Under the pieces are notes generated by a model, which had not been told where the DNA came from, ran no database searches, and saw only the letters and a program-made list of their open reading frames with translations. Shown one piece after another: positions 1,938 to 45,200 of a stretch of 64,000 nt of DNA. A program made the position numbers and the translations under genes. Origin of the DNA: a virus; IMG/VR virus record IMGVR_UViG_3300045241_000217, positions 45,171 through 109,170 of that record; one strand, given 5' to 3'. Numbering within the stretch: the stretch's first letter is position 1; every line of letters starts with the position of its first letter.

Positions 1938-2564
1938 ATGTTGCGCATCGAAGTCGAGATCGAAGGCCGTACCCCGCTGCTGATGAATCGCATGTCGCCC
2001 GAGGCCCTGGAGGGCCTGCGGACGAAAGCGAAGGCCCCGAAGTCCAAGACCCAAGCGTCGCAGACACCCCGCGAGCAAGCTGAGGCTCACGTCTACAAGC
2101 GCACGGACGGCGCGCCGTACTTGCCGGTAGAGAATCTGCTCTCGTGCCTGATCGCAGCGGGCGTGTTCATCCGACTCGACGGCAAGCGTCAGATGAGCAC
2201 AGGCAAGAGCACGACAGTGCCTGGACTGTTCGAGATCGAGGAATCGTGGCTCCCGCTCGTCACGCCATCGGAGAACGGTGCGCGCCCACCGCTCACGTGG
2301 GATCCCGACATTCGCCAGGGCCGCAATCCGAACGGCGGGGAGGCGGTGTGCATCGTGCGGCCGCGCTTCGATCGTTGGGCAGCCTCGCTCACGATCTGCA
2401 TCGACACCGAGCAGATCGACGAGGCGAAGATTCGCGATCTCTTCGACATCGCCGGCAAGCGCATCGGGCTCGGTGACTTCCGCCCGTCGCGCAAGGGTAT
2501 CTTCGGCAAGTTCAACGTGGCCCGCTGGGAACGCCTCGACGCGATCTCTCAAGCCGCGGAGTAG
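1938..2564 (+). CDS. Stand-alone Cas7/RAMP-like RNA-binding protein (208 aa)
   Basis: RAMP signature: N-terminal strand LRIEVEIEGRTPLLMN, PYLPVENLLSCL helix, RPRFDRW strand and C-terminal Gly-rich loop AGKRIGLGDFRPSRKGIFGKF. GGAGG RBS precedes ATG 1938. Confidence 0.8.
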   Translation: MLRIEVEIEGRTPLLMNRMSPEALEGLRTKAKAPKSKTQASQTPREQAEAHVYKRTDGAPYLPVENLLSCLIAAGVFIRLDGKRQMSTGKSTTVPGLFEIEESWLPLVTPSENGARPPLTWDPDIRQGRNPNGGEAVCIVRPRFDRWAASLTICIDTEQIDEAKIRDLFDIAGKRIGLGDFRPSRKGIFGKFNVARWERLDAISQAAE

Positions 2565-2574
2565 TTTACTCCCG

Positions 2575-2700
2575 GGCTGTGAATGGCTCGGCAGCGCAGC
2601 GTTCTGCTCTGTACCGCTTGCCTACGCTCGGCAGGGTTTCGTGTGGCCTGCGCCGCGGCGCTCCGCATGGTCTGGTGCGGCACTGCAACGCAACGCAAGG
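2575..2700 (+). ncRNA. Pentamer-periodic NGY-NN tract 1 (25 units), candidate guide RNA
   Basis: GGC-TC GGC-AG CGC-AG CGT-TC TGC-TC TGT-AC CGC-TT ...; 23 of 25 units fit NGY, with one 4-nt unit at 2645-2648. Ends CGCAAGG. Confidence 0.75.
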
Positions 2701-2771
2701 GCCCCGTGATGGGGATGGTTCGCTCCGAGCATTGGGCTCGTTGCCGGTTTCGAGGACCGGACGGGGCATCA
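2701..2771 (+). ncRNA. tRNA-like cloverleaf between tracts 1 and 2
   Basis: 7-bp acceptor GCCCCGT/ACGGGGC, D-like stem GGGG/CTCC, GAGC-ATTGG-GCTC hairpin, T-arm CCGGT-TTCGAGG-ACCGG, then ATCA. Confidence 0.65.
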
Positions 2772-2780
2772 CGGAAGGAG

Positions 2781-2907
2781 TGTGGTGCGAGGTAGCGCGG
2801 TGTTCCGCAGCGCAGCGCCGGGTCGGGCGGGGTCGCGCACCGCTAGGTTCTGTAGCGCTCTGCGACGTGTCGCGGGGTAAGGCGACCCATCGCTCTGCTC
2901 TCCAAGG
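2781..2907 (+). ncRNA. Pentamer-periodic NGY-NN tract 2 (25 units), candidate guide RNA
   Basis: TGTGG TGCGA GGTAG CGCGG TGTTC CGCAG CGCAG CGCCG GGTCG ... TGCTC TCCAAGG; 23 of 25 units fit NGY in unbroken phase. Confidence 0.8.
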
Positions 2908-2969
2908 AGCCCTGGTGGCTGGTGGCTACGAGAGTCGGTCTCTCGGCGGGTTCGATGCCCGCTCGTAGC
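2908..2969 (+). ncRNA. tRNA-like structure between tracts 2 and 3
   Basis: GTGGC-TGGTG-GCTAC, GAGAG-TCGGT-CTCTC and T-arm GCGGG-TTCGATG-CCCGC. An alternative 7-bp stem GCTACGA/TCGTAGC can stack on the T-arm. Confidence 0.6.
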
Positions 2970-2973
2970 GTCT

Positions 2974-3055
2974 CGCGAGGTCGTGCTGGGCGAGGCGCGG
3001 CACTGGGCTGTGCGGTGACGTTCAGCGGTGCGCGGTACGGTGATGCAATCCAAGG
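2974..3055 (+). ncRNA. Pentamer-periodic NGY-NN tract 3 (16 units), candidate guide RNA
   Basis: CGCGA GGTCG TGCTG GGCGA GGCGC GGCAC ... TGCAA TCCAAGG; 14 of 16 units fit NGY. Followed by a GGCC-CTGC-GGCC hairpin. Confidence 0.75.
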
Positions 3056-3071
3056 GGCCCTGCGGCCAACA

Positions 3072-3608
3072 TCACCGATCGCCACGCGGGAGGGATCCGA
3101 GCAGAGCGCCGACGCGCTCTGCGCCAGGGCGAGGCGCTTCTTCCGGCTCGTCCTCGTCGGTCATCGCGAAACGAAGAGGCGGCTTGCTGGGATCGGTCTC
3201 GGAAAGCTCGAGGGCGTCCCACTCGGCGTCGCCCGTGAGGTGCGGTGCGTCGGCGAAGGCTCGCCCCTCCTCCGTGTTGTTCACGCGGAAGCGCCCACCC
3301 GACACCGGAGCCGGGAGCGTCTCTCCATCCATCGTCACCTGCGCCGGTGCCTCGCGAACATCTCGACGAGGCGTCTGCTGCGGTCGGTTCTTGGACCGCA
3401 CGCGCTCTAGGGCGTCGAGCCCGTAGACCTGCTCAAGCGCCTCCCTCATCGTCACCTGCGAGAGTCTCTCGTCGCTTGGAGGGAGGCGGAACCTTTCGGC
3501 CCACAGGAGCTTCACCACCTCCAGCGGGGGCATCGTCCGTTCCTCGAACGCCTTCGCCAGCATCTCCGGTGAGCGCGTCCCCGAAACGAAATCGAGCCTC
3601 GTGTTCAC
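3072..3608 (-). CDS. Second tail assembly chaperone ORF (probably frameshift-fused to the upstream ORF)
   Basis: Lies between the chaperone and the tape measure; W..RFRLPPSDERL motif; overlaps the upstream ORF by 176 nt in the +1 frame. Confidence 0.55.
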   Translation of the reverse strand: MNTRLDFVSGTRSPEMLAKAFEERTMPPLEVVKLLWAERFRLPPSDERLSQVTMREALEQVYGLDALERVRSKNRPQQTPRRDVREAPAQVTMDGETLPAPVSGGRFRVNNTEEGRAFADAPHLTGDAEWDALELSETDPSKPPLRFAMTDEDEPEEAPRPGAERVGALLGSLPRGDR

Positions 3609-3987
3609 GGCACCTCCCGAACAACGAGAAGTAGGGCGTCATGTCGTACGAATGTTCTCCGTCCGGCGCATACCAGTCGGGCCTCGGGAACTCCTTGGAG
3701 AAGCGAATGGCCACGCTGAGGTACGTGAGCGCCTCGACCTTCCGCCCGCCCAACTGATCGAACGAGGCGCCGTCGGGGAGGATGTTGGCGCGGAGTTGTG
3801 TGATGCGCGTCTCTTCCGCGATGCTCGGGACCTTGTAGTGGAAGCGGCCCACGTACTTGCGGCCGCGCTCTCCCACGACGTCGAGATCGATCATCTTGAT
3901 CGGCGACACGTCCTCGTCCGCGTCCGTCTTTTTCTTCTCGCCCCGCGCTTGGAGCTCGCGCTCCGCATCTTCGATGGTGCTCGCCAT
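3433..3987 (-). CDS. Tail assembly chaperone
   Basis: Synteny (after tail tube, before tape measure); G.F.YKVPSI.E...I..LR and P..DWY motifs typical of such chaperones; GGGAG RBS. Confidence 0.65.
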   Translation of the reverse strand: MASTIEDAERELQARGEKKKTDADEDVSPIKMIDLDVVGERGRKYVGRFHYKVPSIAEETRITQLRANILPDGASFDQLGGRKVEALTYLSVAIRFSKEFPRPDWYAPDGEHSYDMTPYFSLFGRCREHEARFRFGDALTGDAGEGVRGTDDAPAGGGEAPVGRKVPPPSKRRETLAGDDEGGA

Positions 3988-42248: not shown

Positions 42249-45200
42249 CAGCCGAACATGCTCCGCTGCTGCGTGTCCTCTCCGCCCTTGAGCGCTGCGG
42301 TGATCGTCGCGCGCAGCACGTCGCCCGGGCTCTTGCTCTCGCCGAACATGCTCGACTGCCCCTCGGGGTTCTGGCCCGCACGCTTCACGTAGTCACGCCA
42401 CACTGCCGCCTGCTGCTGCGGGCCCGGCTTGCGGATGAGGAGCTCCAGGAGCGCCGTGGCGCTCTCGTTGCCGGCCACGGGGTGACGGTCCCCGAACAGG
42501 TCGTCGAAGTAGTTGAAGAGCCGCTTGAACTGCGCGTCGGGCATCTTCGGATCCATGGCTCCGATCGCTCCGCTCTCCACCCGGTTCTGGAGGCTGTTGT
42601 AGGCCGAGAGCGCCACCGCGAGATCGCTGCCCACGTCGTAGCCGGCGCCGTAGGCCTTGGCCTGCACCATGTACGGCACGCTGCTCGCGATGTTGCCGAC
42701 GAGCTTGGGGCCCGTGTTGCTCAGGATGTCCGCGTCTCCGACGAGGCGACCGACGAGGATGCGCTCGACGAGCACGCGCCCGTCCTCGTTCAGGAGCTTG
42801 GTGCCCTTCTTGAGGTACTGGCTGCTGTTCCGCTGATCGATGATGCCGTTGCGCATGAGCGCGTTCACGAAGCGCTCGCTCCGCGGACTGCCCAGGAAGT
42901 TGGCGAGCGTCTCGTCGCCCTGCATGTCGTTGCCGAGAGAGCCCAGCGTCTGATCGTCGAGCTTGCGGCCGAGCGCGACCTGCATCGTGCGTGGGTCCAT
43001 CGCCTGCGTGAACGACTCGTTGAGTTGACGCACGAGCAGCCGCTGCGCATCCGCCGAGCGGTCCTCGGGATCGATCTCGCGCACGAGCACCGGGCGCTCG
43101 AGGGCGCCGACGTCCTCGGGGCGGAAGCCGAACTCGTGCGCGTGCTCGGCCAGGTACGTCGCGAGCGCGCGACCCTTCTCCTCGTGCTTCTCGTACGCGA
43201 CCTGCATGGACATCGTGCGCGAGTTGCCGCCCAGCGCGATCACACCGTCGCCGTGCGACATGACGACCGGCGGTCCGTTCACCGCGTCGGGGTTGGTGTT
43301 CGCGACGAAGGCCGGGTTGAGCGCCTGCGCGTTGCGCACGACCTTGCCCTGTTCGGCCTGGTCTCGGTGGTACGCGCGTTCCTGGATGTTCTCCGGGTAG
43401 TCCTCGCGCTTGCGGAAGCTCTTGAGCGGATCGTGGCTCGCGATGATCTCGCCAGCCTCCATGAGCCGGTAGCGCGCGCGCACGGCCTTCGGCTGCCCGT
43501 TGTCGCCCGCGACGTACACGTGCGTCTCGCCGCCGATTCGCTTCGGCTCCGGGGACGGGATGACGCTCGCCACCTCGACCATCGCGTCCCGCGCTTGCTC
43601 GGCCACGCGATCGCGCAGGCCGGGAAACGCCGTGGTGAGCATGTTGAGCTGCTGGATGGCCGTGCTTGAGAGCGCGGTGGCCAGCGCCTCGGCCGAGAAC
43701 GACTCGTTGCCGCCGCCGCGAGCCTTCGCGAGGAGCGCCGAGAGTGCCGCGAGCTCGCGCTCCGCGTTGCGTGCGATGGTCGCGACGCGCGCCGAGAAGT
43801 CGTCTTCGGCGGAGCCCGAGCGCCGCATCTCGACGACGGTGCCGACGTGCGCGGCCGTGACGTGCTGCCCGCCCGCGACGTTCTCGGCTGCCGCCACGAT
43901 CTCGTGGAACGAGCGCTGGTCGGTGCGCTTCGTGAGCACGCTGCCCACGACGGCCGCGCGCGCCTCGGGCTCCCAGCCGCGCCGCTCAAGCGCGTGCGCG
44001 AGGATCTCCTTGGCGCGCCACGGGTTCACGCCGGCGCGGTTGAACGCCTTCTGGAGCTTCGCGTAGACGGCCGGCACTCGCTTCTGGAGTGCCTCGAAGC
44101 GCTCTTCGTCCGTGTCGCCCGGGAGATCGTGGAGCATCTCGATCGGCACGTGCTTGAGCACGGCGTTCACGCTCTGCTCGGCGCGCTTCTCCGCCCACGC
44201 GTGGAACTTCTCGCCGTACGTGCCGGCCAGCATCGAGGCCCACTCGTCGGGCTTCACGCTCTTGCGCTCTCCGTTGATCTCCATGTGGATCACGCCGTCG
44301 CTGCCGACGTCGAGCACGTGCACGGTGCGCTCGTGATCGAGCTTCACCTCTTCGCCGGACGTCGCGTCTCGCGCGATCGAGCTCTCTCGGTAGAAGTACC
44401 TCCACGGGCGCTTCGGGTTCCCGGTGGGCACGCGGCGGATGTACTTGTGGCCGCCGGCTGCCTTGTAGAGCGCCTCCATGCTCTTCTGGAGGCTGTCCTC
44501 GTCGAGCGGGATGTAGAAGAGCGACTTGCTGACGCTTGGGTCCTTGAACGCGAACCGCGTCGGCTCCTCCTCCTCTTCGTCGTCCTCCTCTTCGTCGTCG
44601 GATCCGTCGTCGGGCGTGCCCACCTCGTCGTCATCTTCGCCATCGGCGCCGTCGCCGAGCTCCTGGTCATCCATCTCGACCGGGCGAGCGGGGATGCCGC
44701 GCTCTCGCTGCGTGCGATCGGTGGCGCCGTCCACCTCGACCTGCGCTCGATCGTCGAGCAGTCGCGGGCGCGGTCGCAGCGTCTGCGGCGCGAGCAGGTC
44801 GTTGTCTCGGTCGGCCGATCGCGGCACACGCCCCGCGTCGGTCTGCGCGTTCACGGGCGAGCCGTCTTTCGATCCGCCGTGCGTCGCGGCCTCGCTGCCA
44901 GCCTTGTAGCGATCGAGCACCTGGTCGGCCGTAAGCATCGGCTCGCGATCACCAGGCGTCGCCTCCTCGCCCATGATCGAGGGTCGCAGCGTCGGCACGT
45001 AGTAGAGCGTCGGGTCCAGCGGGATGGCCACCGTGCCACCGAGGAACCCGAAGTTCCCGCTCGCGCGATCGGCGTCGGCCTTGCGTCGGTTCGCCAGCGC
45101 CTCGGCCTCGCGCTGCCGGTTCTCGTCGTCGGGTGGCTGGCGGAAGATCGACTGGTAGTCCGGCATGGGCGGCGTGCTCGTGACGGGTGCGGCTCCGCCC

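Follow-up and report, generated by a model that had tools for sequence, protein, structure and literature searches.

How does a viral guide RNA array that has no Cas6 become a set of individual guides, and what are the small tRNA-like structures that lie between the guides of the array described here? The array comes from the virus record IMGVR_UViG_3300045241_000217 of IMG/VR, a complete virus genome of 109,170 bp with terminal repeats, of which positions 45,171 to 109,170 were analysed; this stretch of 64,000 nucleotides is referred to below as the window. The one sequencing run found to contain this DNA is that of the DNA sample from which it came. An earlier, sequence-only reading had taken the periodic tracts of the window for the guides of an RNA-guided system without Cas6, and had suggested that host tRNA-processing enzymes cut their precursor at the structures between them.

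A system with guides of this kind is known. VIPR is a CRISPR-related DNA silencer, described in 2026 (bioRxiv 10.64898/2026.04.26.720920, 10.64898/2026.04.26.720927, 10.64898/2026.10.15.759431), in which a phage-borne ancestral RAMP protein, Vipr, polymerises on vrRNAs and silences DNA by means of a gapped code. A vrRNA is made up of 9-16 YNNGG repeats with a structured tail at the 3' end, and the published arrangements encompass staggered arrays, single guides and hammerhead-interspersed arrays, with either hairpin or pseudoknot tails (VIPR preprints 2026). The hammerhead-interspersed arrays constitute VIPR types I and V (fig. S19-S20, 10.64898/2026.04.26.720920), and hammerhead-separated arrays have been confirmed by sRNA-seq (bioRxiv 10.64898/2026.04.26.720920).

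The locus in the window is a phage VIPR system, composed of one Vipr (ancestral RAMP) gene followed by three guide RNAs on the same strand. Its features are the following.

1938..2564, plus strand: vipr gene, encoding a stand-alone RAMP/Cas7-like protein of 208 aa (phrog_4652, fold and profile match)
2571..2700, plus strand: vrRNA 1 repeat tract, about 25 pentamers, ending in CAAGG (lag-5 G autocorrelation 0.50, pentamer table)
2701..2768, plus strand: tRNA-like element 1, with a 7-bp acceptor, a weak D region, an arm with a 5-nt loop, a T arm and discriminator A
2702..2714, plus strand: vrRNA 1 tail hairpin, CCCC-GTGAT-GGGG (read from the sequence; tail motif similarity I15)
2773..2907, plus strand: vrRNA 2 repeat tract, about 27 pentamers of the form Y-N-N-n-G, ending in CAAGG (lag-5 autocorrelation 0.43)
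2908..2920, plus strand: vrRNA 2 tail hairpin, AGCC-CTGGT-GGCT (RNAfold; motif D2)
2925..2970, plus strand: tRNA-like element 2, an acceptor/T-arm minihelix with one small internal hairpin, a TTCGATG loop and discriminator G
2971..3055, plus strand: vrRNA 3 repeat tract, 17 pentamers, phased from the base that follows the element 2 discriminator
3056..3067, plus strand: vrRNA 3 tail hairpin, GGCC-CTGC-GGCC (read from the sequence; motif D2)

The identification as VIPR follows from the RAMP fold of the gene product, its homology to the Vipr of Escherichia phage SUSP1, the 5-nt tracts and the repetition of this architecture in relatives. The product of 1938-2564 matches phrog_4652 (E 3.6e-22), has more than 560 homologues, and matched no family in a Pfam search. 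The closest PDB folds to its AlphaFold model (pLDDT 90) are Csm3, Cmr4 and Cas7 (Foldseek E 7e-6; VIA-align Z 10.7), and in hhalign the profile of the window family (A2) aligns with SUSP1 Vipr, YP_009199429.1 (97.9%, E 3.5e-13), in an alignment that takes in the G-loop GLGDFRP...FGxF. Model, fold search and profile alignment together describe a minimal RAMP fold homologous to the published Vipr. IMG/VR, JGI metagenomes and two MAGs supplied about 95 related loci in which the gene-plus-tract layout recurs. The Vipr relatives among the loci retrieved are at most 61% identical to the window protein, and two further relatives, P0001 and P0002, were found in Logan contigs at 92% and 89% identity; a search with the protein of the related locus L031 gave no matches. 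The periodic tracts are therefore vrRNAs, and the view of them as guides of a system without Cas6 is borne out.

The array occupies 2565-3071, between the plus-strand vipr gene and the end of a convergent minus-strand ORF. It contains three tracts with a strong 5-nt period (lag-5 G autocorrelation 0.50, 0.43 and 0.33 in order), all of which finish in CAAGG, at 2700, 2907 and 3055. Position 5 of the unit is G in 25/27 units of tract 2 and 16/17 of tract 3, and position 1 is a pyrimidine in the same proportions (25/27 and 16/17). The first G of the published GGY is found in only 8 of the 27 units of tract 2 and 8 of the 17 of tract 3, against at least 93% for the second G and the Y. The repeats therefore have a relaxed NGY/NN form, which matches the "related consensus" kind in the VIPR preprints, and the tandem YNNGG (GGY/NN) pentamers that mark a VIPR locus adjoin vipr in three tracts. 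The pentamer phase of tract 1 slips by one base near 2647-2651 (about 15 units, CCTG, then 10 units), and this tract may represent two guides that are fused or staggered. In a search of 2565-3070, one weak terminator-like site and no promoter-like site were found, which is weak evidence for a single precursor.

A structured tail, CAAGG(R)GCCC with a 4-bp hairpin, follows 3/3 tracts. The tails read CAAGG-G-CCCC-GTGAT-GGGG in vrRNA 1, CAAGG-AGCC-CTGGT-GGCT in vrRNA 2 and CAAGG-GGCC-CTGC-GGCC in vrRNA 3; the first has the position and shape of the CAAGG+GCCC-TTCG-GGGC tails of related loci, and the latter two have the tail motif TCCAAGGRGCCCTG in common (D2). Throughout the clade, tracts end in (A/T)TC(C/T)A(A/C)GG and are followed by a GC-rich hairpin, often GCCC-TTCG-GGGC, and in most relatives within the window's Vipr clade (about 95 loci) it is plain GC-rich hairpins that separate the guides. 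The GC-rich guide separators of L008:2087-2540 and L013:4669-5104 have one shape with differing sequences and GAAA/GAGA-type loops; those of L008 are followed by ACATCTAAGG-like motifs.

The two tRNA-like elements are placed between the three guides, and none follows guide 3. Element 1 begins directly after the CAAGG at 2696-2700. Its acceptor is formed by GCCCCGT (2701-2707) and ACGGGGC (2761-2767), and within it are found a hairpin, CGAGC-ATTGG-GCTCG (2726-2740), and a T arm, CCGGT-TTCGAGG-ACCGG (2744-2760), with A2768 as the discriminator. In element 2 the acceptor is formed by GCTACGA (2925-2931) and TCGTAGC (2963-2969), the hairpin GAGAG-TCGGT-CTCTC (2930-2944) has 2 nt in common with the acceptor, and the T arm is GCGGG-TTCGATG-CCCGC (2946-2962). 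The first in-phase pentamer of guide 3 starts directly after the discriminator, G2970. Every string that the sequence-only reading had quoted from the two inter-tract spacers was found in its place, including the 7-nt strands that close perfect acceptor-like stems abutting 5-bp T arms with TTCGANG loops, the two hairpins with 5-nt loops, and the start of the first element exactly after the tract-ending CAAGG. Its claim of a D-like hairpin in each spacer holds in part: element 1 has a weak one, whereas the candidate assigned to element 2, AGCC-CTGGT-GGCT at 2908-2920, lies outside the acceptor closure and so cannot be a D arm, being the tail hairpin of guide 2.

RNase P and RNase Z need an acceptor/T helix of 12 bp, a TTCRA T-loop and a G1-C72 pair. 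Both elements present a 7+5 bp acceptor/T helix with no spacer, capped by the loops TTCGAGG and TTCGATG, and both have G1-C72 and a purine discriminator (A and G, respectively). The pair at 53-61 is G-C in element 2 and T-A in element 1, loop position 60 is G in both, and CCA is absent. The features expected of a substrate mimic, namely a stacked helix of about 12 bp with a TTCRA loop, G1-C72 and a purine discriminator, are thus found in both elements, and G53-C61 in element 2 only.

Folded alone, the RNAs take the predicted shapes, with energies of -32.3 kcal/mol for element 1 (z -1.9) and -24.3 kcal/mol for element 2 (z -2.8), in RNAfold, a check that the sequence-only reading had proposed. 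The T arms form with a pair probability of 0.98-1.00 in the full 2566-3075 fold and of 0.75-1.00 over all contexts. In local context the pair probability is 0.72 for element 1 and 0.95-0.98 for five acceptor pairs of element 2; when long naked RNA is folded, the GC-rich tracts win over the acceptor stems, whose pair probability is then at most 0.07. Thermodynamic folding on this scale is dominated by tract-tract pairing and is uninformative for protein-coated RNA. Because element 1 draws its 5' acceptor strand from the tail of guide 1 (CAAGG-GCCCC), its acceptor stem and the tail hairpin at 2702-2714 are mutually exclusive.

The elements are far beyond chance expectation and unique in the genome. 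Eight T-arm-like hairpins occur on the two strands of the 109-kb genome, and an acceptor closure of 7/7 Watson-Crick pairs is confined to these two, while 20,000 dinucleotide shuffles of 2565-3071 yielded no T arm closed by a perfect 7-bp stem. The 5-nt-loop arm of element 1 (2729-2743) also matches the G-loop coding sequence of vipr at 13/15 bases (2461-2475; comparison D5, GCATCGGGCTCGGTG vs GCATTGGGCTCGTTG), which is probably a chance resemblance.

The elements are not bona fide tRNAs: ARAGORN and Rfam reject both, their "anticodon" loops have 5 nt, and element 2 is without a D arm. The low tRNA scores that had been foreseen were indeed obtained, as ARAGORN called no tRNA gene in the window or in the whole genome, and neither element was matched by Rfam at gathering score. 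At E<=10 the only Rfam match of element 1 is snoZ6 (18.1 bits against a gathering score of 35 bits, E 0.21), and element 2 matches tRNA-Sec (16.3 bits, E 2.4), the sole match within the tRNA clan; both are taken as chance. Compared with real tRNA genes (Rfam RF00005), the elements have the same 7-bp acceptor, 5-bp T stem, TTCGA T-loop, G1-C72 and purine discriminator, but differ in their 5-nt loops, in a D arm that is weak in element 1 and absent from element 2, in the T53-A61 pair of element 1, in the G at loop position 60 and in having no CCA. Nor are they hammerheads, none of which was found at E<=10 in 2500-3120 or, with the gathering score as cut-off, across the window and 20 related loci, and no other ribozyme or known tRNA mimic in Rfam matched at E<=10. 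Applied to 217 related loci, ARAGORN again reported none at the elements. The genes that it called in L031 (tract plus minihelix), in L233 (inside periodic tracts) and in L088, L089 and L092 (inside apparent coding sequence) look like false positives.

Minihelices of the same design are found in other VIPR loci. A total of 217 loci, including 120 canonical arrays taken from IMG/VR by the pattern (GGYNN)x8, were scanned for an acceptor stem directly adjoining a T stem, each of 5-7 bp, with the loop [TG]TC[AG]ANN, and the array zones, 101 kb in total, comprised the array strand up to 80 nt from a tract. These zones gave nine matches, against 24 in the other 2.85 Mb, an enrichment of about 10-fold; with the window left out, there were seven matches where 0.85 were expected (P 3e-5). 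Besides the window, minihelices occur at tract borders in L031, L227, L228, L261 and L271, which represent at least three Vipr lineages. The stems of the nine elements, as tabulated by script, differ in sequence throughout, and those abutting the hairpin total 11-13 bp with no spacer, a pairing that is partly due to the construction of the search. The pairs G1-C72 and G53-C61, which the search did not require, are each present in 8/9 elements (P 0.0014 each). Aligned with MAFFT, six minihelices (A3) have their 5' acceptor strands out of register.

L031 is the sole minihelix locus of the window's clade besides the window itself, and there the CAAGG tract end is followed by four bases and then by GCGGAG...CCGGG-TTCGAGG-CCCGG-(G)CTCCGC. 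In L261:6884-7218 (minus strand), which lies upstream of a vipr gene whose product is 35% identical to that of SUSP1, three covarying minihelices of 40-43 nt, with the T-loop TTCGACT and the linker GACGGTY, flank two vrRNA tracts; each is separated by 8 nt from the tract that follows it, and one of them comes ahead of the first tract. The L261 minihelices are each followed by AC.C.CGC and the first GG unit. In L228:3600-4000, three guides are followed by hairpins with GTGAAAG/GTGAAAA loops or by nothing and one by a minihelix at 3784-3825, so that hairpin and tRNA-like separators look interchangeable in this locus. L227 and L271 have one minihelix each, after the last or only tract. A search of viral contigs with the pattern CCGGNTTCGAGGNCCGG returned 119 loci, none of them near a repeat tract. 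In the minus-strand locus L232 (reverse-complement 116-2190), nine ARAGORN-called tRNA genes lie about 400 nt upstream of the VIPR array on one strand.

The best reading of these elements, to which we give about an even chance, is that the array is processed at the element borders by host RNase P and/or RNase Z. The vipr gene and the array would be transcribed as a single precursor, as the lack of promoter-like sites inside the array weakly suggests. Vipr would then coat the repeat tracts, leaving the spacers to fold locally. Host RNase P would cut 5' of the acceptor stem, before G2925 and perhaps before G2701, and a 3' tRNA-processing activity (RNase Z, or RNase E together with exonucleases) would cut after A2768 and G2970, giving the 5' ends of guides 2 and 3. 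Element 1 would be either excised or kept on guide 1 as its 3' end, and a mixed outcome is conceivable, in which element 1 receives the 3' cut only and element 2 both cuts. The elements would in this way do the job that hammerhead ribozymes do in other VIPR arrays, and would be a natural counterpart of engineered tRNA-guide arrays.

Several lines of evidence point to such processing. The elements keep the half of a tRNA that the enzymes recognise without the half that decodes; they are found only between guides, with none after the last; minihelices recur at tract borders in other VIPR loci; and the hammerhead processing modules of published VIPR arrays provide a precedent. A broader proposal, held tentatively and with slightly less than an even chance, is that some VIPR phages hand guide maturation to host tRNA enzymes as an alternative to hammerheads, in a design that arose or spread in at least three Vipr lineages.

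A number of findings weigh against processing. Most clade relatives separate their guides by plain GC-rich hairpins, and tRNA mimicry is therefore not required for the system. Owing to the overlap of acceptor and tail, cleavage at 2700/2701 would leave guide 1 without the CAAGG-GCCC tail hairpin, a motif kept by all three guides and by the clade. Element 1 has T53-A61 rather than G-C, and the acceptor stems lose to tract pairing in the long naked-RNA folds. The minihelix replaces the tail hairpin in L228 and L031, which would fit a retained 3' cap as well, and in L271 and L227 it follows the last or only tract. The T-loop likeness, moreover, may be partly inherited from the TTCG-loop tail hairpins that are common in the clade.

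The main rival reading is that the elements are retained 3' tails, the local equivalent of the SUSP1 pseudoknot tail, which would cap the Vipr filament and protect the 3' end from exonucleases with no involvement of a tRNA enzyme. In published vrRNAs the filament is capped by a structured 3' tail, and in the window element 1 shares sequence with the conserved tail of guide 1. The minihelix of L228 and L031 stands exactly where sister guides or relatives have a simple hairpin, and that of L271 follows a single guide. Yet this one locus would then have three differing tails, one of 67 nt, one of a hairpin plus 45 nt and one of a hairpin alone, although published tails are invariable within a locus, and guide 3 is without such an element. 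In L261 the fixed distance of 8 nt to the next tract, and the minihelix that precedes the first tract, look as if the minihelices belonged to the 5' side, and a mere cap would have no need of the kept G1-C72, G53-C61 and TTCGA. We consider retained tails somewhat unlikely.

It is improbable that the likeness to tRNA is only superficial, with variants of a TTCG-loop tail hairpin whose outer stem closes a small junction and serves another role or none. The tails GCCC-TTCG-GGGC and CCCGCGGG-TTCGT-CCCGCGGG are frequent in relatives, and neither the Rfam tRNA model nor ARAGORN picks up the window elements; however, the loops are 7-nt TTCGANN loops and not tetraloops, the closing stems abut the hairpin without a spacer and total 11-13 bp in 9/9 elements, and 8/9 keep G53-C61 and G1-C72. 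The design is also present in the SUSP1-like L261, whose clade has other tails. Highly improbable, in our view, is the explanation that phage tRNA genes are decaying inside the array with no present function. Phages often carry tRNA genes, a nine-gene cluster lies about 400 nt from the L232 array, and element 1 keeps a 67-nt layout resembling a cloverleaf. This phage has no intact tRNA, however, and decay would not spare the 7/7 and 5/5 stems while removing the decoding parts only. The elements also fill the inter-guide gaps exactly, the top-half-only design is found in unrelated VIPR loci, and the L261 minihelices show compensatory changes.

Processing by host tRNA enzymes, which remains the preferred reading, would have parallels elsewhere. 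tRNA-like processing signals include MALAT1 mascRNA, the tRNA-miRNA transcripts of MHV68, the tRNA punctuation of mitochondria and plant tRNA-snoRNA genes, along with the action of RNase P on the C4 RNA of phage P1 and engineered polycistronic tRNA-gRNA arrays. In the window, as in these cases, an embedded acceptor/T-arm mimic would mark RNase P/RNase Z cuts that free the flanking RNAs. With the exception of P1 C4, which concerns a single RNA, the known signals are eukaryotic, organellar or synthetic, whereas the processing predicted for the window concerns a natural guide array of a bacterial virus.

Like the VIPR of SUSP1, the locus has a phage-borne stand-alone RAMP and guides of 5-nt repeats with a short structured tail, in an array downstream of vipr on one strand. 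It differs from SUSP1 in its NGY/NN repeats, in which the first G is present in about a third to half of the units, in a tail that reads as CAAGG plus a 4-bp hairpin in place of a pseudoknot, in the two tRNA-like elements between its guides, and in the apparent lack, among the neighbouring ORFs, of a co-oriented vap-like gene adjoining vipr or the array. With hammerhead VIPR arrays it has in common a structured RNA module between adjacent guides that is likely to serve precursor cutting; in contrast, it has no hammerhead core, and cutting would need host enzymes in place of self-cleavage. The VIPR system itself is already known, and the tRNA-like punctuation is a variant that the main texts of the VIPR papers do not describe: none of the three preprints uses the word "tRNA" in its main text, and among the papers searched none links VIPR to tRNA-like elements.

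How single guides are cut from VIPR arrays has been worked out for the ribozyme-containing types only. Host processing at the elements, if true, would add a second, host-dependent maturation route for a CRISPR-related system without Cas6 and a rule for marking guide boundaries in such loci. It would also make available compact natural parts of 40-68 nt with which VIPR or other guides could be multiplexed in bacteria. The array would be a rare bacterial-virus case of a tRNA punctuation otherwise associated with mitochondria, eukaryotic lncRNAs and herpesvirus miRNAs, and nature's equivalent of the tRNA-gRNA arrays that have been synthesised for genome editing.

Around the locus, the overlapping convergent ORFs 3072-3608 and 3433-3987 (minus strand) lie downstream of the array; these two and the large G/P-rich ORF 1-1752 gave no match in Pfam or PHROG. 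The region 5' of vipr (1805-1935) contains a perfect inverted repeat of 11 nt (1811-1821 / 1892-1902) and an imperfect one of 31 nt (1842-1872 / 1905-1935). The two repeats enclose two CCCCAAGG motifs, which resemble the tail ends of guides, and the arrangement could be an operator or the vestigial tail of an upstream vrRNA.
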